A stretch of 61,148 nt of DNA, filler included, from 7 parts of 7 records of this genome joined end to end with filler, not necessarily neighbours in it; one strand, 5' to 3'; positions 2,721 through 54,154 are shown, numbered from the whole stretch's first letter. The notes: generated by a model from the sequence alone, not told the origin. Numbers and translations: made by a program.

Positions 2721-4007
2721 ATGATAAACTTTCTTCTCATGATACTTTTGGCAAGTCTGTATATTTTAGATTACTTATTTTTTGTCTTGGGTATCGGCGG
2801 AAGAATCATGACCTGGATTCCGGAAATCATAACAATTTTTCTGGCAGTGGCCATTCTTTTTAAACTGGCATTTACAAAAAGCGTTAAGATACCATTTAAA
2901 TATCACCTCCTTATTTTTGCGTATCTTTTTCATCTTATCTCTGGTTTTTTTCTCAACGAGGTTTCAGCAGGAGTTGTTTTTGCCGGCATTCGAATTTATA
3001 CCAAGTTCATTCCCATTTTTCTGGTCCCCCTGGTATTCCCCCTCAGCCAAAAAGCGTTTCGAAATTTGTTGATCTGGATTTATGGCCTGTCCATGCTTCA
3101 ATTTCCTGTTGTACTGTTTCAACGCTATGTGATGTTTGAGTTCTCCGATAGCCCCGACAGGCTGGGGGGAACGCTTGGCTGGGGTACTTCAGGGGTTCTT
3201 GCTTTGTATTTGATCGCAGTTATGTCTTTTTTAATTTCATTTTACTACAAGGGGAAAATTTCTTTTCGGTTTTTCCTTTTTTCAGCTGCGGCTTCATTTA
3301 TCCCCATTACTATGAATTCAACCAAAATCAGTGTGGTTCTTCTTCCAATCGCTTTTGTCATTCCAGCATTTTTTATTGCCGAAAAAAGAGATGTTATATT
3401 TAAGACCTTGTTATTCATATCCATTTTACTTGGTTCCCTTGTGGTCTATAAGTTGGGGTATGACTATTTTGCTCAATTGCAGGGTCGGCGGAATTTGGTT
3501 CAATATGTCTCAAACAAGACGGTAGTGGATAGATACAAACAATTGCGCCTGAAACCTTTGGAAGATGCAATAAAGGTCGCCCCCAAAGGCGATCTCAGGT
3601 TTGCTCTTTTTGGTCGGGGGGCCGGCAATGTCTCCAAAGGCTTTATGCCTTTTTTAACGGGGAAATATTTTTATACAAAAGGAATAATTTATAATGTGAA
3701 TATGACATTTCCAAAGCTTATGTGGGAAATCGGCATCATAGGAACCCTGTTGTTTTTCCTCTTTCCAGTTTTTGTGTTTTTTGATTCCATTAAAGCCAGC
3801 AAAAGCCATGGAATACCAGGTGCCTATGGGCTTGGAATGTTAACGTTTAGCATCTTTATCATTCTGTCGACAGTCTATACCTATACCATCGATTCAAATA
3901 TCCTTATTTTCCTATACTTTTTTGCCGCAGGACAAGCCGTCCGGCTTGCCGTCGAATCTGAAGAAGAATTTTCCCAAGAGGAGGGGCCTGTCTTTTCAAT
4001 GGCGTGA
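2721..4007 (+). CDS. Polytopic membrane protein, probable Wzy polymerase / O-antigen ligase-like
   Basis: About 10-11 hydrophobic segments, a late soluble loop with 'LFGRGAG', EPS cluster context. Confidence 0.6.
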   Translation: MINFLLMILLASLYILDYLFFVLGIGGRIMTWIPEIITIFLAVAILFKLAFTKSVKIPFKYHLLIFAYLFHLISGFFLNEVSAGVVFAGIRIYTKFIPIFLVPLVFPLSQKAFRNLLIWIYGLSMLQFPVVLFQRYVMFEFSDSPDRLGGTLGWGTSGVLALYLIAVMSFLISFYYKGKISFRFFLFSAAASFIPITMNSTKISVVLLPIAFVIPAFFIAEKRDVIFKTLLFISILLGSLVVYKLGYDYFAQLQGRRNLVQYVSNKTVVDRYKQLRLKPLEDAIKVAPKGDLRFALFGRGAGNVSKGFMPFLTGKYFYTKGIIYNVNMTFPKLMWEIGIIGTLLFFLFPVFVFFDSIKASKSHGIPGAYGLGMLTFSIFIILSTVYTYTIDSNILIFLYFFAAGQAVRLAVESEEEFSQEEGPVFSMA

Positions 4008-5299
4008 AATCCCCTCCCATGAAAATATTAATAATTCACTATGCATTTTGGGTTACCGGAGGTCCTGAACGTTATCTGTTTAATTTGACGTCCCATTTTA
4101 GTCAGAAAGGGCATAGGATCATTCCCTTTTCAATGCATTGCAAAGAGAATCGCCCCACACCGTATTCCCGATATTTTGTCAGTCCCATCAATCCGGATGG
4201 ATCATGGTATTTTGACAAAAGCGCTAAAAATTTAAAAACCCTCTTTCGTCAGGCGTCACGTCTATTTTTCTCAAATGAAACCTATGACAACCTAACCCGA
4301 TTAATCCGCAGGGAAAAGCCAGATATCGCTTATGTACTTCTCTTTCATAAAAAATTGTCGCCATCAGTAATAACCGCATGCATGGATGAAAATCTGCCCA
4401 TGGTCATGAGAATTTCAGACTATTTGCCCATGTGCCCCAAGATGACGTTTTACAGGGATGGGCAAATATGTGAGCGTTGCAGGACAACAAAACTTTTTTC
4501 CGTGTTTCATAAATGCACCCAGAATTCATATGCTTCCAGCCTCTTATGGTATTTTGCAGATAAATGGCATCATTTCAGGGGCATTTATCGGGCGGTAAAG
4601 GCCTATGTGGTTACCAACCCATTTATGGAAGAAAAAATGTTGGAGTATGGATATGAAAACCATTACCAGGTGATAGCCTCTCCTTGCAACCTTTACTCCG
4701 ACCGGGTAATACCCATCAAAAAAAAGTTCGATTGAAGCAATTTTGTTATGTGGGTAACCTGTTCGAGCACAAGGGCATTGGTCTTTTGATTCGCTCCTTT
4801 GCACAATTTCATAAATCTTTTCCAGAGTATACCCTTGTCATTATGGGCAATGATTATGACGGGATTAGCGTCTATGAAGGCCGAATCAAAGGAGCTATTT
4901 GCAGGCATATCCTATAAAAAGCATTCGGATAAAAGCCAGGTTCTGGATCTTCTTTCAAACTCATTGTTTTCCTTAATTCCTTCTTTGTGGTACGAAAATC
5001 TTCCCAATTCAGTCATTGAAAGCTTTTCCGTTGGAACGCCTGTTATTGCATCTGATCTTGGAAGTTTACCCCATATGGTGAAACATAACCACAACGGCCT
5101 TTTATTTAAATATGGCGATGCTGGTGCATTGGAAAAAATCATGGCCGAAAGTGTTTCCACCAGTGATGCCCAGTATGGGACAATGCAGGATAACTGCCTA
5201 TTGGATGTCTCTGTGAAATATTCCCACCACGCTCACCATGACAAAATCATACAATTATTCAACAGGATCATTGATGAGACAAGGACGTCGCATGCCTGA
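4004..5299 (+). CDS. GT4 family glycosyltransferase (two apparent frameshifts near 4725 and 4870)
   Basis: 'GGPERY' N-terminal motif, 'CYVGNLFEHKGI' in ORF 4684..4917, and 'PSLWYENLPNSVIESFSVGTPVIAS' in ORF 4799..5299. Confidence 0.85.
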
Positions 5300-6484: not shown

Positions 6485-7472
6485 TCAGGGGGTTCTTCCG
6501 ATAAGGGTTCGATAAACGGTTCTATTCAAGGACAATATTTTTCCATAAATAAACGGCAGGGTGATTCCTGGAATAAAAATAGATAAAAAGCTTAAATAAT
6601 TGGGGGTTTCAAAGACCAGCGGAGACAAATTCTTAAATAGGGTAAAGGTGGGCATATGGAAGACATATACAATGATTGAATATGTACCGTAATACCTCAG
6701 GATCCTTGTTAATAGAGCTTGGGAATAATTTTGGGCAATCAAATAACAGATGCCGAGAATAAATAGGGAGAAGAAGATTCCTGGCAGGCCCATTGCCTGG
6801 GATGCTTTTGATACCCAGAGTATTGCCACGTGGTAATCTGAAACGAACTGAGAGCCAAAGGTGACGATATAAAGCCCTAACAGGAGAATAAGATGCTTTT
6901 TTCCTGAAATGGCTTTTTTATAATAAGCGAAGAAAAATAATAACCCAGCGCATAGTAAATAAAATAAATTGAAATCTTATGGAATGCAAAATAGTGATAG
7001 TCCGTAAAAATATTTAAGTCACTTTTAAGAAAGATCGCAATTATAATCAAAACGCCGATATTCAGTTTAAATATGCGTATGTGTAAAAAGGTCAATATCT
7101 GGATGCTGTATAGGGTAAACAAAAACCAGAGTACCCCTGACGGCAGCAGCTTCCCATTGGACTGCTCCAGGAGCAGGGAATAGATCATTTGCCCCAGTGA
7201 TGGTGCTTGGGTATACCTGCCAAGGGTCAAATTGACCAGAAGATACACAAAGGACAAAGAATAAAAGGGTATAAGCAGCGATCTTGTCGTCTGAGTAAGA
7301 TAGGTTTTATTGCTTATATCTGGATTTGCCAGCCGGATGTGTTGAAAGCAGCCTGAGATTATAAAAAAAAGGGGCATTGCAAATGACCAGATGACCGGGT
7401 TGGTTATGGACAAAAAATTGTTCCAGACAGGATATCCTTTGTAATGGACTGCAGCATGACCATAGATAACTA
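6485..7472 (-). CDS. Acyltransferase family 3 (OafA-like O-acyltransferase), 5'-truncated, frameshift near 6870
   Basis: 'FAMPLFFIISG', 'LLIPFY', 'LWFLFTLY', 'YSIIVYVFHMP' motifs; multiple TM segments. Confidence 0.8.
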
Positions 7473-7572
7473 NNNNNNNNNNNNNNNNNNNNNNNNNNNN
7501 NNNNNNNNNNNNNNNNTTAATTAATTAANNNNNNNNNNNNNNNNNNNNNNNNNNNNNNNNNNNNNNNNNNNN
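7473..7572. other. Artificial contig linker (N44-TTAATTAATTAA-N44)
   Basis: Identical 100-nt spacer with stops in all six frames, occurring six times in the window. Confidence 0.98.
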
Positions 7573-7709: not shown

Positions 7710-8603
7710 TTAGATCAATTCCGCTTTCTGTAAGATTTTATGAAGACTTTTTTTCGCAATATCATCCAACGGCTGCAGAGGTTTTCTAACATATCCACCT
7801 TCATATCCGAGTAAATCGGCAGCATATTTCAACCCAGCAATTCCAAACCCACCTGTTACGGCAGCGTTAACCGGAAATATTTTTCGATATATCTTCTCTG
7901 CTCCTTTTCGATTACCCGAATCGAACGCCTCTTGTAATGTTACACACTCATTGGGAATACAATTCGCTGCCGCAAATATACCACCAGAAACTCCAAGGGT
8001 TAAGGCAGGATACCAGGAGGAAACAGTTCCTGATAAAAGTTCAAATTGCTCATCAATAACAAGTTGATGTGAAACGAGTTGGGGAATATCTCCAGTACTA
8101 TCTTTCATCCCTATGATATTAGGATGTTGGCTTAACGTTTTAACTGCACCAATAGTTATATTTACATGAGTAAATTTAGGAACGTTATATATGAGAATTG
8201 GTATCGTGCTGTGACCAGCAACAGCTGAGAAGTAATCAATAAGGGCCTTTTCATTCATTTCACGATGATAATAAAATGGGGTGAGCACTAAAGCTGCATG
8301 AACGCCCAAATCTGCTGCACGATTAGTCAGATCAATCGTTTCTCTGGCTGAATCCATTCCCGTCCCAGCAAGGATTACGCGATCTTTTGCAGCATGTTTT
8401 ACCGTAATTTCTATAAGCTTAATCTTCTCATTTTCGCTGAGATATATCGTCTCACTATTGGACCCGAGTACGAGGTACCCCCGCAAAGAGGCTTTATTCC
8501 ACCTCTCTAGATTCCGAATATGGGCTCCATAATCAACCTGCTCATCTTCACTAAATGGAGTTATCATAGGAGGGAAAACTCCATTCAAATTTATTTTTTT
8601 CAT
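7710..8603 (-). CDS. DHDPS/NAL-family class I aldolase, 4-hydroxy-2-oxoglutarate aldolase (HOGA)-like
   Basis: 'GVFPPMITPF', 'GSNSE' (HOGA-type GSNGE rather than DapA GTTGE), 'IYNVP', Schiff-base 'GMKDS', C-terminal 'GIAGLKYAADLLGYEGGYVRKPL'. Confidence 0.8.
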   Translation of the reverse strand: MKKINLNGVFPPMITPFSEDEQVDYGAHIRNLERWNKASLRGYLVLGSNSETIYLSENEKIKLIEITVKHAAKDRVILAGTGMDSARETIDLTNRAADLGVHAALVLTPFYYHREMNEKALIDYFSAVAGHSTIPILIYNVPKFTHVNITIGAVKTLSQHPNIIGMKDSTGDIPQLVSHQLVIDEQFELLSGTVSSWYPALTLGVSGGIFAAANCIPNECVTLQEAFDSGNRKGAEKIYRKIFPVNAAVTGGFGIAGLKYAADLLGYEGGYVRKPLQPLDDIAKKSLHKILQKAELI

Positions 8604-8625
8604 CGGTTTTTCCTTTGTACAGCTA

Positions 8626-9666
8626 TTAATTGGTTTCTTGGATGATTCGAGCAATTATCTTGGCAGCACTCTGGGTCGTACCTGTACCGCCTAAATCAGG
8701 AGTCAACCCCTCCCCTTGTTCTAAAAATTTCTCTACTGATTGACGGACAGCATGTGCAGCATTCAATTCACCCAAGTGATCAAGCATCATCGCTCCACTC
8801 AAAATAAAGGCGATTGGATTGGCAATATTCTGCCCGGCTATATCGGGCGCTGCACCATGAATTGCCTCAAACATCGCAATTTCCTCACCATAGTTTCCTC
8901 CCGGTCCCAATCCAAGTCCACCGGTAATTGCCGAGGCAATGTCCGACAGGATATCGCCGTACTGATTAGGAGCAACAATCACATCGAACAGATCAGGTCT
9001 TGTTACCATCTCCGCGGCCGCAGCATCGATCATCCTGGCGTCGGTGGAGATATCCGGATACTTACCTGAGATGTCATTGAAAACCTGGAGATACATTCCG
9101 TCAGTATACGGCAACACATTGGCTTTATGGGCAAGTGTTACTCTCTTTCGCCCATCCCGGCTGGCCAATTCAAAACCGAACCGTATGATCCTTTCTGCTG
9201 CTCGCTCGGTAGCCAGAACAACTGCTTCAGCACGCCCCGGCTCGACAATACGCTCTCCTCCCACATAAACACCTTCAGACACTTCACGAACAATTACTAG
9301 ATCAATGTCAAGATCGGTAAATCTGCTTGAAACACCTGGAAATCCACGAGATGGTCTGATATTGGCAAAGGCTTGGCAGACACCACGCATAGCTCCGTTC
9401 GTTGACCCGTATGTTTTTCCACGAATAGTAACCGGTGGTGAACCAGGATGAACGATTAGTGGTGCCTTGAGCGCGACTTTGGTCCTGTTGAGACTCTCTA
9501 TGGTAATTTCAGGAAGCGGATTGCCAGTCTTCTCTTCAGAGCCATGGCCGGCTAGACATTCTTCATATGTTAATTCAACTCCGGTTGATTCAAGAACAAG
9601 CAATGTTGCTTCCATGATCTCCGGTCCAATACCATCGCCCGGAATGATAGTGATTTTATGAGTCAT
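8626..9666 (-). CDS. Isocitrate/isopropylmalate dehydrogenase family (beta-decarboxylating dehydrogenase)
   Basis: 'IPGDGIGPEI', 'ANIRP', 'HKANV', 'NQYGDILSD', 'EAIHGAAPDIAGQNIANP'. Confidence 0.9.
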   Translation of the reverse strand: MTHKITIIPGDGIGPEIMEATLLVLESTGVELTYEECLAGHGSEEKTGNPLPEITIESLNRTKVALKAPLIVHPGSPPVTIRGKTYGSTNGAMRGVCQAFANIRPSRGFPGVSSRFTDLDIDLVIVREVSEGVYVGGERIVEPGRAEAVVLATERAAERIIRFGFELASRDGRKRVTLAHKANVLPYTDGMYLQVFNDISGKYPDISTDARMIDAAAAEMVTRPDLFDVIVAPNQYGDILSDIASAITGGLGLGPGGNYGEEIAMFEAIHGAAPDIAGQNIANPIAFILSGAMMLDHLGELNAAHAVRQSVEKFLEQGEGLTPDLGGTGTTQSAAKIIARIIQETN

Positions 9667-11624
9667 AAAGTCTTTCCCCTCCCTTTGTTTTGAACTATTG
9701 TATCTGCATTTTGTTTTACATAATTGAGCAGTCCACCTTGCAGCAAGATCTGCTGAAAACGATCTGAGATTGATATCGTTGTTACAAATACCGCTCCATT
9801 ATTCTTATTTTTTACAGTCAGTTTCCCAGATCCCAGGCTTCCATGGATATCCTCCACGATGAGGACGTCGCCCTGTTCAATTTCGTCGTACGCGGACGGA
9901 TCCTCAAAAACTAGAGGCAATATTCCGAAATTAATAAGATTGTTAAAGTGAATCCTAGCAAAAGATTTGGCAATCACTGCCTTGACACCGAGGTACATTG
10001 GAGCAAGCGCAGCATGTTCACGGCTTGATCCCTGTCCGTAATTCTCACCGCCAATTATAATGCCGCCTCCAGCGTCTTTTGCACGGTCCACAAACCTATC
10101 ATCCAAACGCTCGAACACATGCTGTGAAAGGGCTGGAATATTGGACCTCAGTGATAGCAGTTGTGCGCCTGAAGGCATAATGTCATCGGTTGAAATATTA
10201 TTGCCGGTCTTGATAAGAACAGTTTTCTCAAGGGTGTCCCCTACCGAATCGTTAAGGGGAAACGGTTTGATGTTGGGTCCTCTCCACACTGATACCTGTT
10301 CTGGATCTGGCGCGGGTCTGACAAACAGATCATCGTTGGTGAGATGAAATGCTGGCTCGCTTTTTCTTAGGACCGGACCGAAAGTCCTTGGATCTGTGAT
10401 TTTTCCGGTCAAAGCTGACACAGCAGCAGTCTCCGTGCTTGCCAGAAAGACTTCGGCATCAATAGTGCCACTCCTGCCGGTGAAATTGCGATTCGTCGTT
10501 CTTAAAGAAACCCCTCCTGTAGGAGGAGACATCCCGACTCCGACGCAGGGTCCACAGGCACTTTCTAAAATTCGGGCCCCTGCACCGACCAAATGCTCGA
10601 GCAAACCATCATGAGTGATGGTTTGTAGAACATTACGCGAACCTGGAGTGATAACAAGGCTGACATCAGGGTGCACTTTTTTGTCTTTCAGTATCGCAGC
10701 AGTTGTCGCCAGGTCAGAGTAAAATGAATTACTGCAACTACCTATTACAACTTGATTAACTGGTATTGAGCTAAGCTCGCTTATTTTCTTTACATTGTCC
10801 GGACTTGGTGGAAGTGCCACTTGTGGTTCAATTTCCGAGAGATCTATTCGAATCTGATCATCGTACTCGGCTCCAGGATCAGGGCCAAATTCCTGCCAGT
10901 CAGATTCACGATGCTGGGATATGAAGAACTCGCGCGTAATTTCATCGCTAGGAAATATCGAGGTTGTTGCACCAAGTTCTGCACCCATATTAGTGATTAC
11001 CGCTCGATCGGTTATACTGATTGATGACAGGGCGGGTCCGGTATATTCTAGTATTTTTCCCACCCCTCCTTTTACGGTTAGACGTCGGAGAACTTCCAGA
11101 ATGATATCCTTACCGGTCACGTAATCCGGCTTGTTGCCATAAAGATCGATATTCATGACTTCCGGCATCTTAAGATAATACGGTGCCCCTCCCCAAACCA
11201 CCGCAAGATCGAGGCCGCCAATGCCAATGGCAATCATCCCAACACCGCCGCACGTGGGGGTATGGCTGTCAGCTCCTAGCAATATCTGACCTGGAGAAGA
11301 AAAACGCTGCATGTGAAGCTGATGACAGATACCGTTACCGGCAGGAGAATATACGGCACCGAATTTACGGCTGAATGATTGCAGGAAGAGGTGTTCATCC
11401 GGGTTCTGAAAACCAACTTGGAGGGTGTTGTGATCTGAGTAAATTACTGCGACATCAACGGCTATTTTTGATTTGCTGATTGCTTCAAATTCCAGGCAGG
11501 CAGTAGCGCCTGTTGAATCGGGCAACAAAGTTTGATCGGCTCTGATTGCAATCTCACTACCAGGTATTGTTTCTCCGGTTATAAGATGTTGTTTGATGAT
11601 TTTTTTTGCTAGTGGATCTCTCAT
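9663..11624 (-). CDS. Aconitase-family hydratase/isomerase (small ~650-aa type, [4Fe-4S])
   Basis: 'GICHQ', 'GADSHT', 'GSCSN', 'CGPCVG', 'NRNF', 'GQGSSREHA'; ATGA overlap with the next gene. Confidence 0.92.
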   Translation of the reverse strand: MRDPLAKKIIKQHLITGETIPGSEIAIRADQTLLPDSTGATACLEFEAISKSKIAVDVAVIYSDHNTLQVGFQNPDEHLFLQSFSRKFGAVYSPAGNGICHQLHMQRFSSPGQILLGADSHTPTCGGVGMIAIGIGGLDLAVVWGGAPYYLKMPEVMNIDLYGNKPDYVTGKDIILEVLRRLTVKGGVGKILEYTGPALSSISITDRAVITNMGAELGATTSIFPSDEITREFFISQHRESDWQEFGPDPGAEYDDQIRIDLSEIEPQVALPPSPDNVKKISELSSIPVNQVVIGSCSNSFYSDLATTAAILKDKKVHPDVSLVITPGSRNVLQTITHDGLLEHLVGAGARILESACGPCVGVGMSPPTGGVSLRTTNRNFTGRSGTIDAEVFLASTETAAVSALTGKITDPRTFGPVLRKSEPAFHLTNDDLFVRPAPDPEQVSVWRGPNIKPFPLNDSVGDTLEKTVLIKTGNNISTDDIMPSGAQLLSLRSNIPALSQHVFERLDDRFVDRAKDAGGGIIIGGENYGQGSSREHAALAPMYLGVKAVIAKSFARIHFNNLINFGILPLVFEDPSAYDEIEQGDVLIVEDIHGSLGSGKLTVKNKNNGAVFVTTISISDRFQQILLQGGLLNYVKQNADTIVQNKGRGKTL

Positions 11625-11706
11625 AAACTTGTTCTCCCTGTACTTTCAATTCAGAGCATCATCGCCCTCAAGTTGTTTTTTCATAGAATAATCTGATATA
11701 TTTTCT

Positions 11707-12567
11707 TTAAAAACGGAATAACTTAGCCGGGTTCTCAACCAGTACCTGATTGCACAATTTCTCACTTGCGCACCAATTTCTAAGCGTTACCAGTTCCCTG
11801 GGGACATCGATATCCCTGAACGGCTCGATTTCTTCTACACTTCTGGCTGCCCGGTCTTTGCCGCCGCCGGTGTGCGGCCAATCTGAACCCCATATTAGCT
11901 TTTCAGGAATGGCTTGGATCAGCGCCAGAGCAAACTCTGACAACACCTCGCACCCTTTTTCATTGCCAGTTCTATAAGGAGCAGAAAACTTAATCCAAAA
12001 ATCAGAACTTACGAGAAAGGCAATGATCTCCTTTAACTCATTCTTTGACAGAGCATCTGATAAGCCGGCGAAATGATCGAGAATTATCGGTACATCAAAG
12101 GACTCAAGAACATTTCTATCTGAAAGCAGTTCTTCAACAGAGCAGTAAATCTGTAGTATAAGTTGAGATCCTTTGATGCAGGAGACCGTATCCCTTAGTA
12201 CCTCAGCCTTATTCTTCACCCCGGAACGAGGTGAAGACTCGAAATTGGCCCTCACTCCTACGACTCCCAATTGACATAAGCTATCCAGGAAGTCATCTGA
12301 CGTGTCCCGCGGATCAATCACGGCAATTGCTCGTGCTGCAGCTCCTTTATCGGACAACGCCTGAATCAGAGCGGTATTATCTGTACCATAGACGCTTGGC
12401 TGAACAAGGATCGTACGGGACACACCAAGACGGGCGTGGAATACAGAAAGGGATCGAAGATCTGCCTGCGCAGGTGTGTAAGACCTTCCCGCTTGATACG
12501 GGAATCGATCTGGATCAAAAACGTGCACATGTGTATCGCAACTGTAGTCCGGCAACTCGTATGCCAT
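11707..12567 (-). CDS. Amidohydrolase_2 family protein, lactonase-like (LigI/COG3618-type)
   Basis: 'DTHVHVF', 'VQPSVYGTDN', 'LDHFAG', 'KFSAPYR', 'WGSDWPHT'. Confidence 0.85.
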   Translation of the reverse strand: MAYELPDYSCDTHVHVFDPDRFPYQAGRSYTPAQADLRSLSVFHARLGVSRTILVQPSVYGTDNTALIQALSDKGAAARAIAVIDPRDTSDDFLDSLCQLGVVGVRANFESSPRSGVKNKAEVLRDTVSCIKGSQLILQIYCSVEELLSDRNVLESFDVPIILDHFAGLSDALSKNELKEIIAFLVSSDFWIKFSAPYRTGNEKGCEVLSEFALALIQAIPEKLIWGSDWPHTGGGKDRAARSVEEIEPFRDIDVPRELVTLRNWCASEKLCNQVLVENPAKLFRF

Positions 12568-12600
12568 ATTTTTTCAACTAGTTATTGTGAATAGTGCGGG

Positions 12601-12666
12601 TTGACACAAAATCATTGTTGTGGTATTTTGAATTATCGAAATACCACAGTGCACTGAGCTTTGCAA
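12601..12666. promoter_or_regulatory. Overlapping divergent sigma70 promoters with inverted-repeat operator
   Basis: Plus strand: TTGACA (12601)-17 nt-TATTTT with TGn. Minus strand: TTGCAA (12666-12661)-17 nt-TATTTC with TGn. Inverted repeat TGTGGTATTT-N10-AAATACCACA at 12619-12648. Confidence 0.6.
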
Positions 12667-12952
12667 CCGTTTTTTTATGCATTTATGATTATTACTAGTA
12701 CTAACTCACATTTAAGCAGATCAAACCAAAAGGATGGCAAAACAAGTTGCCCTGTTAGTTTAATGTTTTCCTTTTCGTATCCCACCTGCATTGTTAGGAA
12801 AGTTATGTTTACACTGAAGCGACATTTGGAGGACTTTGCTATAATGGGCTACTCTCTCTACGAGTGTGGGGTCGTTATCAGGGTGGATTCGTATGCCTGC
12901 AACACATCGCTAACCATCCTCACAGGAAAAAATTAAGACATGGAGGAATGTC

Positions 12953-13855
12953 TTGGCAACAACACCACTAGTCAATCAAGTAGCGGAACAAATCATTGAT
13001 TACGTCAACTCCGTACCGCAACCGAAGGGTATGCGTTTGGTGGAGCGGAAACTTGCCGAACAGTTCAAGGTTTCCAGGAGCCCCATCAGACGTGCGTTGC
13101 AACTGCTGGAAACAAAAGGTTTTGTAAAGCCTGAATTGAAAGGAGGCTATTCTGTTAGAACCATTAATGGGACTGTTCCACAGATTGAAATCGAAAATGA
13201 CCATTCAATTGAAGAGTTAACCTATAAATCTATTTCTGAAAATCTGCTAAGTGCAGAACTGCCGAGGCGCATTACCGAGAACGAATTATTACGACGTTAT
13301 AGGGTTACCAAAACCCAATTAAAAAGAATATTGAAACAAATAGAGTTTGAGGGATGGATCGAACCATTGCCGGGGCATGGCTGGCAGTTTATAGAGGTTC
13401 TCACTACCATGAAAGCCTACAAAGACAGTTACCGGTTCAGAAAAGTCATAGAACCGGCAGCAATACATGATCCATCGTTTCGACTCAATCGCCGTGAGCT
13501 CACCAAACGGCTCGAGGAACAACATGAACTTTTAAGGGGCAGAATCTTCAACATCACTGATACAGATATCTTCGAGCTCAACAGCACACTGCACGAAACA
13601 ATAATCGAGTGCAGTAATAACAGTTTTTTTATTAGTAGCTTGAAGCGTCTCAACGGCCTGCGGCGGTTGATGGATTACCGTCAAACGCTCAACAAGAAAT
13701 CCGCCACTGAAAGAACAAAAGAACACATCAACATTGTTGAATTATTGCTCGACAATAAACGCAACGATGCCGCTCATGCCCTTAACCTTCATCTCAGTCG
13801 TGCCAGCGAGGAAAAAACCAGAAAAAAAGCTTTTAATAAAGGGTTCCTTGAATAA
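12953..13855 (+). CDS. GntR family regulator with two wHTH domains plus FCD domain
   Basis: 'ERKLAEQFKVSRSPIRRALQLL', second HTH 'ENELLRRYRVTKTQLKRIL..EGWIEPLPGHGW', FCD-like 'NSTLHETII...EHINIV...HL'; TTG start with GGAGG RBS. Confidence 0.85.
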   Translation: MATTPLVNQVAEQIIDYVNSVPQPKGMRLVERKLAEQFKVSRSPIRRALQLLETKGFVKPELKGGYSVRTINGTVPQIEIENDHSIEELTYKSISENLLSAELPRRITENELLRRYRVTKTQLKRILKQIEFEGWIEPLPGHGWQFIEVLTTMKAYKDSYRFRKVIEPAAIHDPSFRLNRRELTKRLEEQHELLRGRIFNITDTDIFELNSTLHETIIECSNNSFFISSLKRLNGLRRLMDYRQTLNKKSATERTKEHINIVELLLDNKRNDAAHALNLHLSRASEEKTRKKAFNKGFLE

Positions 13856-14640
13856 TAGCCTTCAAAAATCTCCTTAAAACTCAACAAAAACAGGGTAAAA
13901 TCTCTGAAAAACGATTAATATCAGCATGTTGAATAACAACACAGGCCATAATCGTACTTTCAGAGGTAATACCATGCCCCAATTCGGACTTTTCGATTTC
14001 CAGAAACAACTCGCTCTCCTGGATAAAGCCGGAGATCCATTGATAGCGCTAAACAAGACGATCGATTGGGAACAATTTCGCTCAATAATTGAAAGAGCCA
14101 GGGAGAAACCAAGGAAATCCCCAGCTGGCCCCAAAGGATACGATTCCATTTTATTCTTCAAGATACTCATTCTCTAATCACTCTATAATCTCTCGGATGA
14201 GGCCATGAAGTACCAGATTCTTGACCGGTACTCCTTCTCCGGGTTTTTAGGTATTCGCCAGGGTGCCAGGGTCCCTGATGCAACTACCATTTTCAGATTC
14301 CGCGATGACCTTGCAAAAGCAGATGTCATTGATCTTCTCTTCAATAAATTTGACCAGCTCCTGCACGCCAATGGTTTCCGGGCCCAGAAAGGCCAAATCG
14401 TTGATGCCAGTATCGTTCGTGTACCGACCCAGCGCAACACGCGGGAAGAAAACAAGGATATCAAAGAAGGTAAATCCATATCATCATGGTCCAAAGCAAA
14501 GAGACGGCAAAGCGTTCTTTGGTTATAAGAATCACGTCAGCATTGATGCCGGATACAAGTTTATTCGCACCTACAAAGTGACTGATGCCAGTGTTCATGA
14601 CAGCCGGATCTTTACTGAACTGCTTGATCCGAGCAATACC
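13841..14640 (+). mobile_element. IS5-family element with inactivated transposase, truncated by contig end
   Basis: Transposase from ATG 13974 ('MPQFGLFD..GDPL..IDWEQFR', 'VPDATTI', 'GQIVDAS', 'GYKNHVSID', 'ASVHDS'); in-frame TAA at 14175 and a frame-shifting deletion near 14510; left end placed approximately. Confidence 0.85.
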
Positions 14641-14740
14641 NNNNNNNNNNNNNNNNNNNNNNNNNNNNNNNNNNNNNNNNNNNNTTAATTAATTAANNNN
14701 NNNNNNNNNNNNNNNNNNNNNNNNNNNNNNNNNNNNNNNN
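14641..14740. other. Artificial contig linker
   Basis: N44-TTAATTAATTAA-N44. Confidence 0.98.
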
Positions 14741-16974: not shown

Positions 16975-17225
16975 GCCACCTGCCTACTGTCCGCTCCCGA
17001 CTTGTAAACCAGCGAGTTACTCACATTTTTTTGTCTGCTACAGTGCTCTCAAGCAGCAACATCTGCGTAATCTGTGGTTCAGACACCAGGTAACTATAGT
17101 ATTCCCTTCCGACATATTTTCGACAGGCTTTTGCGCTAAATTATATTTCCTGTTGTATAGCTACAATTTTGTTTGTATATTATTTGAGGAAATTAAGAGA
17201 CATATATCCAAATTGGAGTATTCAC

Positions 17226-17540
17226 ATGTCCCTTGCCGAAACAAGTTACGAACATATCATCCTTAACGAAAAAAAACAGGCGATCATTAAAGGTACAAAA
17301 ATCAAGGTTATTGAACTCGTACTTGACAAAATCGCTTATGGATGGAGCCCCGAAGAACTCCAATATCAACATCCTCAACTTACTTTGGGCCAGGTATATT
17401 CAGCCCTTGCCTATTACTCTGACCACCAGGAGATTTTTGACAAGGAGATCGAAACTCAATTAAAACAAATAGATAAATTGAGCGAATCCGCAAAAATATC
17501 ACCTCTCATCAAACGGTTAAAGGCTAAAAAGCTGATTTAA
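17226..17540 (+). CDS. DUF433 family antitoxin-like protein
   Basis: 'IIKGTKIKV..LV...GWSPEELQYQHPQLTLGQVYSALAYY'. Confidence 0.85.
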   Translation: MSLAETSYEHIILNEKKQAIIKGTKIKVIELVLDKIAYGWSPEELQYQHPQLTLGQVYSALAYYSDHQEIFDKEIETQLKQIDKLSESAKISPLIKRLKAKKLI

Positions 17541-17887
17541 TGGCAATCGGACTATACATGGATCATAACGTGCCTCGGGCGATCTCAGATGGACTGAAGT
17601 CACGTGGTATAGACGTCATTACATCATTTGAAGATGGTACAAGTGAAATCGATGATTCAGCACTTTTGGATCGGGCAACCGAATTAGAACGTCCAATATT
17701 CACAAGAGATTACGACTTGCTTCAGGAAGCGACAATACGCCAAAGACATGCTGTTCGCTTTAGTGGTGTTATTTACGCACATCAATTACGAGTTTCAATT
17801 GGTACTTATATCCATGATTTAGAGCTCATCGCAAAAGCCGGACATCCTGAAGATATGGAGAATAGAGTCGAATTCCTGCCTTTGTAA
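17540..17887 (+). CDS. DUF5615 PIN-like toxin (VapC45/Mut7-C-like)
   Basis: 'LYMDHNVP...GLKSRGIDV...DDSALL..A....R.IFTRDYD'; TAATG coupling to the DUF433 gene. Confidence 0.85.
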   Translation: MAIGLYMDHNVPRAISDGLKSRGIDVITSFEDGTSEIDDSALLDRATELERPIFTRDYDLLQEATIRQRHAVRFSGVIYAHQLRVSIGTYIHDLELIAKAGHPEDMENRVEFLPL

Positions 17888-23322: not shown

Positions 23323-23778
23323 TTAATCGGTTTCTGATTCATTTTCCTCGCTGATTCTGTTCAGGATTTCCAGTTTAAGCGCTTCTGAAAAATCATTTTC
23401 ATGGATTATGGACGTCATTATTTCAAGCAGCAATTCCTTGTCTATTCGTCCGGCTGCAAGATGATAACTGATATTTTCCATTTCTCTGACAAAACGTGAA
23501 ATACAATACAGATATCCGTTTAAATTCAGAAATTGAATGCCCAGAGCAATGGCAATCCGTTTATTACCATCCTGAAAACAGTGAAACTTGTTGCTACAGA
23601 AAAAAAGATGTGTTAATTTTTCTTCAAAAGTCGGATAATAGTCATCATTTTTAATATGTTCTAACGCACTCTCCAGATAATCGGTGTTGAGCTCACCCTG
23701 CTCACCGCCACCACTGATCTCAACAGTATTCGCGTGGATGTGCCGCGCCATATCCATATCGATATAGAGCGTTTTCAT
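23323..23778 (-). CDS. Fic/Doc family protein (Doc-type toxin)
   Basis: Motif 'HCFQDGNKR'. Confidence 0.9.
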   Translation of the reverse strand: MKTLYIDMDMARHIHANTVEISGGGEQGELNTDYLESALEHIKNDDYYPTFEEKLTHLFFCSNKFHCFQDGNKRIAIALGIQFLNLNGYLYCISRFVREMENISYHLAAGRIDKELLLEIMTSIIHENDFSEALKLEILNRISEENESETD

Positions 23779-26127: not shown

Positions 26128-28128
26128 GCCTCAAGCACCTCATCAATCAAACCTTCTGTTTCCCGTTCCAGTGCCAGAATATCTGCCCGAATCTCAGCAA
26201 GGCTTCGTAGTGGTTTATATGTGTAAAAGTACTTTGTAAAATTGATTTCATAGCCCGTCACTGTTTTATCCTCATCAATCCAGGCATCAGGTACATGCGG
26301 TAGCACTTCACGCTCAAAATAGGTTTGTATATCCTCTTTTAGAGGAACGTTCTCATAGTCTCGAAGCTGACTGTCCGCTTCCGGTTTACCCTTTGCGTCT
26401 GTGCATATATCAGCTGTTTCATCGCGTTCGCTCAGGGCATTTAATATGGCTTTTTTAGGGGTGCTGATGAGGATATGCCTCGGGATTTGGCTGTATTTTC
26501 CAGGTCCCTGATAAAATTATTTCTGTTTTTATAAAGTTTCGACGCATCCAGAGTACGGAGCATTGCGAGCACATCTTTTTGCAGCTTTTCACCCGTTTCT
26601 TTTTCCTGCAGACCAGCCTGACCTTTCTTTTTGCTTTTTGCCAGATTAACATAGGCTGTTTCGCTTTTTAACAGCTCAACGCGTTCTTCTGAGGTCTGAA
26701 AATTTAATCGCAGCGGCCGTTCCACTGTGATGCGCTGGTAACCGAAATCCATGTTATCAAAAATTTTACAATACTCATTTTCTGTAAAATCCCCGTAAAT
26801 ATTGGTTATCTCTTCAATATGCGCTGTACTCATTTCATTGCGCTTGTTGCCCATACTACGACTCATTTTTTCAAAAAAGGATGTGGCATTAACAAGCTGT
26901 ATTTTCCCTTTTCGTTCTTTTGTTTTTCGATTGGTTACAATCCATATATAGGTGTAAATACCCGTGTTGTAAAACAGTTGATCCGGCATCGCCACAATGG
27001 CTTCCAGAAGATCATTTTCAATTATCCAATTACGAATATTACTCTCACCGCTGCCAGCCCCACCTGAAAACAACGGTGAACCATTAAACACAATGCCCAA
27101 ACGTGAACCACCGTTGGCCGGTGTCATTTTTGATATCATGTGTAGTAAAAACAAAAAGACCCATCACTAATACGCGGCAAACCGGCGCCAAACCGGCCAC
27201 CGTAACCCAGCTTGTTGTGCTCGTCCTTTACGTTCTTTTCAATCTTGCGCCATTCCACACCAAAGGGTGGATTGGAGAGCATATAATCAAATTTTACATT
27301 TTTTAATCCGTCACCTGTAAAGGAATTGCCAAACTTGATGTTGGTTACAACTTCGCCCTTGATCAGCATATCTGCTTTACAGATCGCATAAGACTCCGGA
27401 TTTATTTCCTGACCGAACAAACGCAGACTGGCATCCGGATTCAAATCCCGTAGATACTCTTCGGAAACAGATAACATGCCTCCGGTCCCACAAGCCGGAT
27501 CGTACATGGTTTTCACAATTCCCGGTTTTGTTAATATTTCTTTATCCTTCAGGAAAAGCAGATTGACCATTAATCGAATGACTTCACGCGGGGTAAAATG
27601 TTCTCCAGCTGTTTCGTTTGAGGCTTCCGAGAATTTGCGTATGAGTTCTTCAAAAATGTAACCCATCTCTATGTTACTGACCTTTTTGGGATGGAGATCT
27701 ATTTTGCAAAATTCCTGGACAATGAGAAAAAGCAAATTTGACTCATCCAAACGATGAATATGATCATTAAAATTAAAATAATTAATAATTTCACGAGCAT
27801 TGGCAGAAAATCCATTAATATAATTCTTGAAATTAGCAGCAATATTGTCAGGATCCCCTTTGAGTTTGTCAAAATCATATAAACTGCGATTATGAAATTT
27901 GAGTCCGGCCTTTTTATTCAAAACCGGATCGATATTCTGCAAATTCATATGTCCCAGTTGGGGTAGGTAATCAAGAACCTTTTGTTTCGTTGGCGCTAAA
28001 ACGCAATCCAACCGCCGCAATACAGTCATAGGTAATATCACTTTACCATAATCAGCCTGTTTATAATCACCTCTGAGTAAATCAGCAATGTTCCATATAA
28101 AATTAGCATGGTCCCGAACGTTGAGCAT
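26124..28128 (-). CDS. hsdM: Type I R-M N6-adenine methyltransferase (apparent frameshifts near 27150 and 26450)
   Basis: 'FIWNIADLLRG', 'GEHFTPRE', 'YDPACGTGG', 'NPPFG', 'FNGSPLF', C-terminal 'GYEINFTKYFY'. Confidence 0.93.
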
Positions 28129-28500: not shown

Positions 28501-28600
28501 NNNNNNNNNNNNNNNNNNNNNNNNNNNNNNNNNNNNNNNNNNNNTTAATTAATTAANNNNNNNNNNNNNNNNNNNNNNNNNNNNNNNNNNNNNNNNNNNN
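28501..28600. other. Artificial contig linker
   Basis: N44-TTAATTAATTAA-N44. Confidence 0.98.
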
Positions 28601-33926: not shown

Positions 33927-34026
33927 NNNNNNNNNNNNNNNNNNNNNNNNNNNNNNNNNNNNNNNNNNNNTTAATTAATTAANNNNNNNNNNNNNNNNNN
34001 NNNNNNNNNNNNNNNNNNNNNNNNNN
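33927..34026. other. Artificial contig linker
   Basis: N44-TTAATTAATTAA-N44. Confidence 0.98.
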
Positions 34027-42146: not shown

Positions 42147-42246
42147 NNNNNNNNNNNNNNNNNNNNNNNNNNNNNNNNNNNNNNNNNNNNTTAATTAATT
42201 AANNNNNNNNNNNNNNNNNNNNNNNNNNNNNNNNNNNNNNNNNNNN
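42147..42246. other. Artificial contig linker
   Basis: N44-TTAATTAATTAA-N44. Confidence 0.98.
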
Positions 42247-54054: not shown

Positions 54055-54154
54055 NNNNNNNNNNNNNNNNNNNNNNNNNNNNNNNNNNNNNNNNNNNNTT
54101 AATTAATTAANNNNNNNNNNNNNNNNNNNNNNNNNNNNNNNNNNNNNNNNNNNN
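54055..54154. other. Artificial contig linker
   Basis: N44-TTAATTAATTAA-N44. Confidence 0.98.

Follow-up and report, generated by a model that had tools for sequence, protein, structure and literature searches.

The route from citrate through isocitrate to 2-oxoglutarate, in the form found in Clostridia and Aquifex, pairs a PRK07229/TIGR01342-type aconitase with an NAD-isocitrate dehydrogenase: the hydroxyl of a tertiary carbon is shifted to a secondary one, and oxidative beta-decarboxylation follows. The isopropylmalate isomerase/dehydrogenase and homoaconitase/homoisocitrate dehydrogenase modules share this logic (2-substituted malate to 3-substituted malate to 2-oxoacid), but serve biosynthesis, with split enzymes of the LeuC/LeuD type. 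In protocatechuate 4,5-cleavage, the 2-pyrone-4,6-dicarboxylate hydrolase LigI opens a carboxylated lactone ahead of a hydratase and a class II aldolase, and in animals HOGA1, which acts as the aldolase for 4-hydroxy-2-oxoglutarate (HOG), ends hydroxyproline breakdown. Bacterial use of hydroxycitrate has biochemical precedent, since the review PMC4945632 cites a single 112-kDa Micrococcus enzyme, with no gene known, that converts hydroxycitrate to 2-oxoglutarate (Zemlyanukhin 1996); it also cites action of isocitrate dehydrogenase on the Garcinia isomer. No gene-level pathway for hydroxycitrate breakdown was found in the searchable literature, in line with the view of a sequence-based first-pass annotation that a hydroxycitrate pathway composed of a lactonase, an aconitase, a decarboxylating dehydrogenase and a HOG aldolase is undescribed.

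The locus analyzed here lies in a window of 61,148 nucleotides (the whole stretch of DNA under study), in which six artificial linkers (N44-TTAATTAATTAA-N44) join at least seven contigs. The DNA is not continuous, and genes beyond the linkers therefore have no genomic adjacency to the cluster, which occupies the whole of one 7,068-bp metagenome contig (7573-14640) between linkers at 7473-7572 and 14641-14740. One end of this contig lies 137 bp past the aldolase stop codon, and the other falls inside a transposase fragment (DDE_Tnp_1, PF01609, E 3e-7; 14263-14640, plus strand) that runs into the contig end. A contig from a public run terminates at the identical two points. At the transposase end, the final bin reaches a depth of 52, up from 9.4, with short repeat contigs mapping to the same place. 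No transporter gene is present on the 7,068-bp contig, which ends close to the cluster on both sides.

Four minus-strand open reading frames (7710-8654, 8626-9666, 9663-11624 and 11707-12567) and one plus-strand frame (12953-13855) encode four enzymes and a divergent GntR/FCD regulator, all intact and with full-length Pfam matches. The aconitase stop and the dehydrogenase start overlap by four bases (9663-9666), the lactonase and aconitase genes are separated by 82 nt with GGGAGA ahead of the ATG, and the divergent intergenic region spans 385 nt. The four enzyme genes form an operon. The first-pass description of four co-oriented, closely spaced genes divergent from the regulator was confirmed by the reading frames, the 4-bp overlap and the ribosome-binding sites, and its four enzyme family assignments were upheld by Pfam and curated profile scores.

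We tentatively read this locus, with somewhat less than even confidence, as an operon under GntR repression that breaks down a lactone-forming, hydroxylated tricarboxylic acid of plant or microbial origin; the substrate that fits best is hydroxycitrate gamma-lactone of the garcinia/hibiscus acid type. The LigI-like lactonase would open the lactone to hydroxycitrate. A remodelled aconitase would then, by dehydration and rehydration, shift the tertiary hydroxyl onto the CH2 arm, giving 1,3-dihydroxypropane-1,2,3-tricarboxylate, and the isocitrate-dehydrogenase-like enzyme would oxidize and decarboxylate this intermediate, via enzyme-bound oxalomalate, to HOG. Finally, the HOGA-type aldolase would cleave HOG to pyruvate and glyoxylate, while the regulator, probably bound to a palindrome at 12619-12648, would come off the DNA in response to the acid or its lactone. 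We infer the substrate, the order of steps and the regulation from sequence comparison: if the three enzymes act one after another and the aldolase takes HOG, the usual 2-substituted to 3-substituted malate logic leads back to hydroxycitrate, the lactone of which is the best single candidate substrate. The retro-chemical derivation in the first-pass annotation, from HOG through the dihydroxytricarboxylate to hydroxycitrate, is sound, and its interpretation as a whole is supported in part. If this reading is right, the operon would share its substrate with the Micrococcus activity, but as a multi-enzyme route rather than a single enzyme yielding 2-oxoglutarate. Hydroxycitrate could also be processed in a redox-neutral manner, the aconitase dehydrating toward the CHOH arm to give oxalosuccinate, a compound that isocitrate dehydrogenases decarboxylate; the dehydrogenase would then act as a decarboxylase only, yielding 2-oxoglutarate, and the aldolase would have a side role such as oxaloacetate decarboxylation. 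Such a route appears quite improbable, as it gives the closely linked HOGA-type aldolase no part in the pathway, and the Micrococcus activity is tied to no gene.

The first gene of the operon (11707-12567, minus strand) encodes a 286-residue LigI-like lactonase of the COG3618/Amidohydro_2 family (PF04909, 103.7 bits against a cut-off of 26.4, profile 1-289 of 289). Its best solved relative is LigI (4D8L, E 3e-22), which is distant (82 bits) but shares the Amidohydro_2 fold and the His/Asp stretches: D-T-H-V-H (D-x-H-x-H), L-D-H and D-W-P-H all align and are retained. These stretches hold the conserved His-x-His, His and Asp residues of the family. Here the lactonase is followed by an aconitase and a dehydrogenase, unlike in the LigI pathway. 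The nearest database proteins are just 45-46% identical. An identity as 4-sulfomuconolactone hydrolase was rejected (NF042924, 118.7 against a cut-off of 500).

The divergent regulator (12953-13855, plus strand) is a 300-residue protein of the long-linker type, with an N-terminal GntR winged helix (PF00392, 57.3 bits) and a C-terminal FCD domain (PF07729, 51.3 bits), both past their cut-offs. Members of the long GntR subfamily also regulate unrelated clusters. Within the intergenic region, the inverted repeat TGTGGTATTTTGA-N4-TCGAAATACCACA (12619-12648, 13-nt arms, 92% complementary) overlaps the top promoter-like site (12601-12629) and is a probable operator. Similar 24-mers occur in the regulator-lactonase intergenic regions of two other loci (L131 and L168), the pattern having been derived post hoc from these same three sequences.

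Relatives of three of the five genes recur together elsewhere. The regulator, lactonase and dehydrogenase are found as a trio on four proteobacterial plasmids (Cupriavidus taiwanensis, NZ_LT984809; Roseomonas mucosa, NZ_CP025064; Lichenicola cladoniae, NZ_CP053709; Microvirga, NZ_CP069356), and a fifth plasmid (Paraburkholderia sabiae, NZ_CP125297) carries the lactonase-dehydrogenase pair with no regulator match. The carriers of the trio comprise Proteobacteria associated with plants or lichens, together with one skin isolate. These uncharacterized clusters share the divergent GntR layout, and identity to the contig proteins is 38-41% for the lactonase, 35-41% for the dehydrogenase and 42-50% for the regulator, the homologs of which in Microvirga, Cupriavidus and Roseomonas are likewise divergent from lactonase homologs. 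In four annotated records, the dehydrogenase adjoins the lactonase or lies one gene off; in Lichenicola it adjoins a second, more distant lactonase copy. On four of the five plasmids, the annotation includes TTT (tricarboxylate) or MFS transporters.

This recurrence, the Paraburkholderia cluster with lactonase and dehydrogenase only, and the similar palindromes in three intergenic regions all point to another reading, namely that the locus is a variant of a proteobacterial regulator-lactonase-dehydrogenase pathway, in which the lactonase product (for instance from a carboxylated sugar-acid or isocitrate-type lactone) passes straight to the dehydrogenase, and the aconitase and aldolase serve side or downstream reactions outside the linear scheme. 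An ascorbate pathway in Cupriavidus necator reportedly also follows an amidohydrolase-superfamily lactonase with an oxidative decarboxylase. We nevertheless regard this variant as improbable: the aldehyde dehydrogenase, cupin, ABM protein and SerA-like enzyme of the plasmid clusters are absent from the contig, the aconitase gene stands between lactonase and dehydrogenase with translational coupling, and the kinship of the regulators extends to unrelated clusters under the same long subfamily. Conversely, neither an aconitase nor a DHDPS-type aldolase accompanies the clusters on the five plasmids, which, if they use the same lactone, would process it by a different route. The full four-gene set was not found elsewhere in 50 genome loci, 80 metagenome loci and plasmid searches with the four proteins and the regulator, a survey in which the contigs of the closest homologs were out of reach; the contig-length fingerprints of these closest homologs showed no overlap among the four proteins.

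The aconitase (9663-11624, minus strand, 653 residues) is a diverged PRK07229-type hydro-lyase of the aconitase family (Pfam Aconitase, 327 bits; Aconitase_C, 84 bits) that exceeds curated cut-offs (NF005558, 874.8 against 612; TIGR01342, 791.3 against 719.15). Equivalents of D100/H101, H147, D165/S166/H167, N258/E262, R447/R452 and S642/S643/R644 are retained together with the three Cys ligands, and its residues C297, C357, C360, D64/H65, H101, D119/S120/H121, N212/E216, R379/R384, R493 and S533/S534/R535 are the same in 119-120 of the 120 closest homologs. At residue 35, by contrast, the protein carries a Pro where all 120 have a Gln. Alignment with 5ACN equates this position with pig Gln72, which we take to be a substrate carboxylate ligand. 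Besides Pro35, eight more positions near-invariant among the 120 homologs are altered, and a conserved Lys/Arg is lost; the protein deviates at 24 of 209 near-invariant columns (Pro35 included), against 0-8 in 12 control homologs, and its terminal branch is the longest among 121 sequences (0.87 against a median of 0.026). The Pro35 substitution, the column changes and the branch length together argue against a housekeeping enzyme and for a strongly diverged copy.

The same divergence bears on whether the aconitase and dehydrogenase are simply an ordinary citrate-to-2-oxoglutarate branch, of the kind formed by Clostridium-type pairs, that merely sits beside an unrelated lactonase and DHDPS-family gene. 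The aconitase does pass the PRK07229 cut-off, the dehydrogenase is of a broad NAD-IDH-like type, and such aconitase-dehydrogenase pairs are common (six of the 80 metagenome loci). Yet the loss of the invariant Gln and the 23 other near-invariant changes set this aconitase apart from that branch, the dehydrogenase falls under every curated IDH cut-off, and the pair is coupled in an operon to a lactonase and a HOG-type aldolase, with a regulator of catabolic type that has homologs in control of lactonase clusters. We give an ordinary citrate branch only a small chance.

The dehydrogenase (8626-9666, minus strand, 346 residues) belongs to the beta-decarboxylating isocitrate/isopropylmalate family (Pfam Iso_dh, 293 bits). 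It falls short of every NCBIfam cut-off, with its best score to the NAD-IDH model NF006529 (347.9 against 510) and 294.8 against 432.4 for TIGR00175, and its best solved relatives are the NAD-IDHs 6LTF and 6LKY (about 310 bits). It retains S88-x-N90, R94, R104, R127, Y134, K181, D214, D238 and D242, a set that comprises the S-x-N motif for the gamma-carboxylate and the catalytic Arg, Tyr, Lys and Asp residues. This isocitrate-type S-x-N differs from the pattern of the isopropylmalate and homoisocitrate modules; the Thermus homoisocitrate dehydrogenase has g-a-i there. The enzyme groups with proteins of Caulifigura coniformis and Phycisphaeraceae, among others, in a clade of 28 proteins at 54-70% identity. 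Its motifs, genome distribution and branch give no clear sign of specialization away from isocitrate: the PNQYGD and REV motifs are common to all of the 120 top matches, the broader type is present in 136 of 401 genomes from one phylum, at roughly one copy each, and the branch length is not unusual. Because of this broad type, these shared motifs and this distribution, the enzyme may accept plain isocitrate.

The last gene encodes a HOGA-type class I pyruvate aldolase of the DHDPS fold (Pfam DHDPS, 193 bits, profile 2-288 of 289). Although its listed reading frame opens at a TTG at 8654, the start is most likely the ATG at 8603 (7710-8603, minus strand), because this codon lies 22 nt past the dehydrogenase stop, is preceded by AAGGA, and the HOGA1 alignment begins from residue 18. 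The best solved match is human mitochondrial HOGA1 (3S5O, E 7.7e-62, 212 bits), followed by a DapA at 135 bits. A DapA identity was rejected (TIGR00674, 182.4 against a cut-off of 206.15); the GSNxE motif reported in the first-pass annotation is present as GSNSE (residues 64-68), in place of GTTGE, and the KDS motif is retained. Residues K184, Y156 and S65 align with the Schiff-base Lys196 and the Tyr168/Ser77 proton relay of HOGA1, while N66, S186 and G209 correspond to its Asn78, Ser198 and Gly222; according to PMC3188589, which also describes the Lys196 and Tyr168/Ser77 roles, Asn78 touches the distal carboxylate of HOG and Ser198 its 4-hydroxyl. Among the 146 nearest representatives (four of 150 were left out for length), the Asn78 equivalent is N in 76 and the Ser198 equivalent is present in 125. 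HOGA1 Asn173, which takes the place of DapA Arg138, is replaced by Phe161, Phe being the commonest residue in the relatives (65 of 146). At the sequence level, the HOGA-type assignment thus stands, and the splitting of HOG into pyruvate and glyoxylate is the predicted reaction, although here the enzyme is encoded, in a bacterial operon, behind an aconitase and a dehydrogenase rather than closing hydroxyproline breakdown.

All that the retro-chemistry pins down is the skeleton R-CH(OH)-C(OH)(COOH)-CH2-COOH, so the same enzyme chain could serve the lactone of another 2-(1-hydroxyalkyl)malate-type acid, such as 2-hydroxyparaconate/itatartarate (leading through 4-hydroxy-2-oxobutanoate to pyruvate and formaldehyde), or an analogue that is methylated or longer. 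Loss of the conserved Gln and Lys/Arg in the aconitase could equally reflect a lost carboxylate contact; Asn78 is of moderate importance in HOGA1, N78A raising KM six-fold, according to PMC3188589; and both 2-hydroxyparaconate and itatartarate occur naturally as acids of fungi. Retention of the isocitrate-type S-x-N in the dehydrogenase and of Asn78 in the aldolase nevertheless favors a tricarboxylate, as do the tricarboxylate transporters that accompany the plasmid relatives, and PMC9875883 deals with branched dicarboxylate metabolism in Pseudomonas. Another lactone acid is therefore an unlikely alternative to hydroxycitrate lactone.

The boldest form of the hydroxycitrate-lactone proposal is rather doubtful. 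It would make the operon a complete undescribed pathway with 1,3-dihydroxypropane-1,2,3-tricarboxylate as a new intermediate, an aconitase re-tooled by loss of its Gln and the first defined bacterial catabolic role of a HOGA-type aldolase, and would make the plasmid clusters a second way, without an aconitase, of dealing with this class of plant acid lactones. Garcinia and Hibiscus contain abundant hydroxycitrate, which is marketed as a supplement and counts as a classic inhibitor of ATP-citrate lyase. If the proposal is true, the operon would yield enzymes useful for assaying hydroxycitrate stereoisomers and for their biocatalysis, and would offer an entry point to the widespread clusters of regulator, lactonase and dehydrogenase that plant-associated bacteria carry on plasmids. 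It would also provide a natural case of an aconitase re-specified through few pocket changes, and a bacterial role for an aldolase whose loss in humans causes primary hyperoxaluria type 3. Should the substrate be another lactone acid, these families would still gain a function from the same work.

Four closely spaced genes and a divergently transcribed regulator make up the cluster on the contig at 7573-14640. The minus strand encodes a HOGA-type aldolase (DHDPS, 7710-8654), a dehydrogenase (Iso_dh, 8626-9666), an aconitase (Aconitase and Aconitase_C, 9663-11624) and a lactonase (Amidohydro_2, 11707-12567), while a GntR/FCD regulator (12953-13855) is encoded on the plus strand. The four-gene operon with divergent regulator described in the first-pass annotation is borne out by these ORF calls and by Pfam matches that are full-length for every protein. 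The start of the dehydrogenase gene and the stop of the aconitase gene share a four-base overlap, and the 82 nt between the lactonase and aconitase genes contain a GGGAGA ribosome site. Translation of the aldolase most likely begins at the ATG at 8603, preceded by AAGGA, a start that agrees with where the alignment to HOGA1, the human aldolase for 4-hydroxy-2-oxoglutarate (HOG), begins. Within the 385-nt divergent region, two 13-nt arms form an inverted repeat (12619-12648) that overlaps the best promoter-like site.

The setting of the cluster is defined by the contig itself. Six N44-TTAATTAATTAA-N44 linkers with stops in six frames (7473-7572, 14641-14740, 28501-28600, 33927-34026, 42147-42246 and 54055-54154) indicate that the window comprises at least seven artificially joined contigs. 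Adjacency across linkers and ORFs reading into them are thus not real, and the window's polysaccharide, restriction, gyrB and pilus genes are not demonstrated neighbors of the cluster. One end of the cluster's contig lies 137 bp beyond the aldolase stop and the other inside a DDE transposase fragment; no RNA run is listed as containing this DNA, and a contig of the only public DNA run that does, probably its source, has the same end points, and read depth in that run rises about five-fold over the transposase. The absence of a transporter gene is uninformative. Scanning the window against Rfam and for tRNAs gave no matches, and comparison of its GyrB, 55-58% identical to proteins of three phyla, gave no taxonomic placement. 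The contig at 14741-28500 encodes the type I restriction methylase HsdM in two pieces, as overlapping ORFs at 27136-28128 and 26441-27154 that indicate a frameshift, and has a Fic/DOC gene (23323-23778) between hsdS and hsdR. A DUF433/DUF5615 gene pair at 17169-17887, also on a contig other than the cluster's, is likely a toxin-antitoxin type module. On the polysaccharide contig, two interrupted genes (4004-5299 and 6485-7413), one for a GT4 glycosyltransferase and one of the Acyl_transf_3 family, each fall into two ORFs, reflecting either frameshifts or assembly errors.

The best-supported part of the putative pathway is its final step, in which the aldolase would yield pyruvate and an aldehyde from HOG or from a closely similar compound. 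The best solved relative of this protein is human HOGA1 (3S5O, E 7.7e-62, 212 bits), followed by a DapA at 135 bits, and its score against the DapA family model falls below the cut-off (182.4 against 206.15). The HOGA1 study (PMC3188589) assigns Lys196 as the nucleophile, Tyr168/Ser77 as the proton relay, Asn78 and Ser198 as contacts to the distal carboxylate and the 4-hydroxyl of HOG, respectively, and Gly222 as a backbone contact, and describes DapA as lacking equivalents of Asn78 and Ser198. All six residues are retained in the aldolase, within its GSNSE and KDS motifs among others. The position of HOGA1 Asn173 is occupied by Phe, as it is in 65 of the 146 nearest representatives (4 of 150 having been dropped for length).

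The aconitase scores above the PRK07229 and TIGR01342 cut-offs, and alignment to pig aconitase shows that the three cluster cysteines and all mappable catalytic residues are kept. Its 120 closest homologs form a flat set at 54-60% identity in which housekeeping enzymes, from Firmicutes and other groups, predominate, and the protein departs from them at positions that are otherwise nearly invariant. Pro35 replaces a Gln found in all 120 homologs, at the position aligned with pig Gln72, a ligand of the substrate carboxylate. Ala40 and Thr41 stand in place of Thr and Met, Gln106 in place of Glu and Ser298 in place of Thr (each 120/120), as do Leu34 for Thr, Phe301 for Ser and Gln488 for Lys or Arg (each 119/120), and Met365 for Gln (118/120). 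Altogether, 24 of 209 near-invariant columns are altered, against 0-8 in 12 control homologs, and the protein's terminal branch, at 0.87, exceeds every other among 121 sequences (median 0.026, maximum 0.55). An intact catalytic set within a remodeled pocket points to a changed substrate rather than to a housekeeping copy or a dead gene.

Six of the 120 closest aconitase homologs (P0264, P0268, P0271, P0279, P0283 and P0305) are about 961 residues long and carry fused methyltransferase domains (PF13847, PF13649, PF08241). Plasmid-borne PRK07229-type aconitases of Azotobacter, Polaromonas and Octadecabacter (L133, L134 and L135) are flanked by IS elements; in the latter two, MarR regulators lie nearby, as do suf/erpA or other Fe-S genes. 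Such copies could be extra aconitases associated with stress islands; their IS, MarR and Fe-S contexts are unrelated to the cluster.

The dehydrogenase falls under every NCBIfam cut-off, the nearest being NAD-IDH (347.9 against 510), and matches solved NAD-IDHs at 310 bits, roughly the distance between two family members. It keeps the S-x-N signature of isocitrate enzymes, where the Thermus homoisocitrate dehydrogenase has g-a-i, together with the Arg, Tyr, Lys and Asp set, a combination that favors a substrate carrying a gamma-carboxylate. Comparison with the 120 top hits revealed no further sign of specialization: the PNQYGD and REV motifs and a loop insertion, considered as special features, are common to all 120, and the branch in the tree is ordinary. 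Of 401 genomes of one phylum, 136 encode the broad type, about one copy each; three of these (G116, G141 and G244) are flagged unpublished. A closer clade comprises 28 proteins at 54-70% identity, including those of Caulifigura coniformis and Phycisphaeraceae. The model of this clade had no match at E 1e-110 in 88 genomes of one phylum, and in 401 genomes of another it recovered the broad type only, the best (genome G343) being 45% identical and without partners. A housekeeping aconitase-dehydrogenase pair beside unrelated genes, an unlikely rival reading, would accommodate a dehydrogenase of this broad type but fits the remodeled aconitase poorly.

The lactonase is distantly related to LigI (4D8L, E 3e-22) and keeps the conserved stretches of His and Asp residues. 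None of its relatives is close, with 45-46% identity at best, and its Atlas label is simply 'amidohydrolase'. The subfamily is rare among the genomes sampled: at E 1e-50, one of the 401 genomes searched in one order has it, and none of 401 in one phylum.

Genomic neighborhoods resembling part of the cluster were found on plasmids from Proteobacteria associated with plants, lichens and skin: Cupriavidus taiwanensis (L131, NZ_LT984809), Paraburkholderia sabiae (L132, NZ_CP125297), Microvirga (L168, NZ_CP069356), Lichenicola cladoniae (L169, NZ_CP053709) and Roseomonas mucosa (L170, NZ_CP025064). The best plasmid lactonase relatives (38-41%) are divergent from a long GntR regulator 42-50% identical to that of the contig. 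An Iso_dh-family dehydrogenase (35-41% identical) adjoins the lactonase or lies one gene away in the annotated records, and lies about 1.1 kb from it in the unannotated Microvirga record. This proximity is accompanied by the regulator in C. taiwanensis, Microvirga, R. mucosa and L. cladoniae; in the last, the lactonase next to the dehydrogenase is a second, more distant copy (30%), and no regulator match exceeded the blast limit. P. sabiae has the lactonase-dehydrogenase pair only. TTT or MFS transporters are present in all four annotated records; three of the five (Cupriavidus, Lichenicola, Roseomonas) add a cupin and an enzyme resembling succinate-semialdehyde dehydrogenase, and two (Lichenicola, Roseomonas) an ABM protein with a SerA-like enzyme. 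The four plasmid dehydrogenases scanned are all under every NCBIfam cut-off. The operon could, less probably, be read as a variant of the plasmid-cluster pathway; however, the plasmid clusters have neither the aconitase nor the DHDPS aldolase, both of which the contig encodes. Members of the long GntR subfamily also control unrelated clusters on plasmids, so a shared regulator is no proof of a shared ligand. A similar 24-base palindrome lies between the regulator and lactonase genes in the window, in Cupriavidus and in Microvirga, a pattern drawn post hoc from the same three sequences and thus an observation rather than a test. Separately, a 476-residue protein (P0186), 48% identical to the contig's dehydrogenase, fuses an Asp/Glu-racemase-family domain (PF01177) to Iso_dh, and the Cupriavidus cluster has a stand-alone racemase-family gene nearby.

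The complete four-gene set was found neither in 50 genome loci scanned with the lactonase as query, nor in at least 80 metagenome loci scanned with the dehydrogenase clade, nor in plasmid searches with each protein. The genome scan returned lactonase relatives 28-34% identical and one partial 44% match (locus L050), some of these loci adjoining DHDPS-like or LeuC-like genes; among the matches listed, the metagenome scan returned proteins at most 48% identical, none with the clade's PNQYGD motif. Both large scans missed close clades, which makes the absence of the set elsewhere a weak negative. The contig-length fingerprints of the four proteins' closest homologs do not overlap. Nearest relatives in different lineages, together with the flanking IS fragment, fit a cluster that was assembled and is possibly mobile.

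Acting in succession, enzymes of the aconitase and Iso_dh families turn a 2-substituted malate into a 2-oxoacid, as is established for citrate, isopropylmalate and homocitrate. For that product to be the one a HOG aldolase cleaves, the malate would have to carry CH(OH)-COOH as its substituent, which makes hydroxycitrate the starting acid. The natural forms of hydroxycitrate are gamma-lactones, 3-hydroxy derivatives of isocitrate lactone, so a carboxy-lactone hydrolase suits the first step. In the proposed route, the lactonase would open the gamma-lactone, and the aconitase, whose altered pocket suits an extra hydroxyl on one arm, would act with the dehydrogenase to convert hydroxycitrate to the 2-oxoacid cleaved by the aldolase. 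As cited in a review (PMC4945632), isocitrate dehydrogenase acts on the Garcinia isomer of hydroxycitrate, and a Micrococcus enzyme converts hydroxycitrate to 2-oxoglutarate. A redox-neutral route to 2-oxoglutarate is an unlikely rival for the operon; it would leave the HOGA-type aldolase without a role in the pathway.

The hydroxycitrate pathway proposed in the first-pass annotation is partly supported, as read from one short metagenome contig: the enzyme families, the HOGA-type site and the diverged aconitase speak for it, whereas the set was not found elsewhere in the loci and plasmids searched and the dehydrogenase shows no clear specialization. In line with the annotation's statement of knowing no described pathway with this set, the searchable literature yielded no gene-level hydroxycitrate or isocitrate-lactone pathway. 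Breakdown of hydroxycitrate lactone to pyruvate and glyoxylate is a tentative assignment, and the same enzyme chain could act on a different substrate with the same skeleton. Stated more broadly, pyruvate and a small aldehyde are probably what the operon makes from a hydroxylated di- or tricarboxylic acid able to form a lactone.
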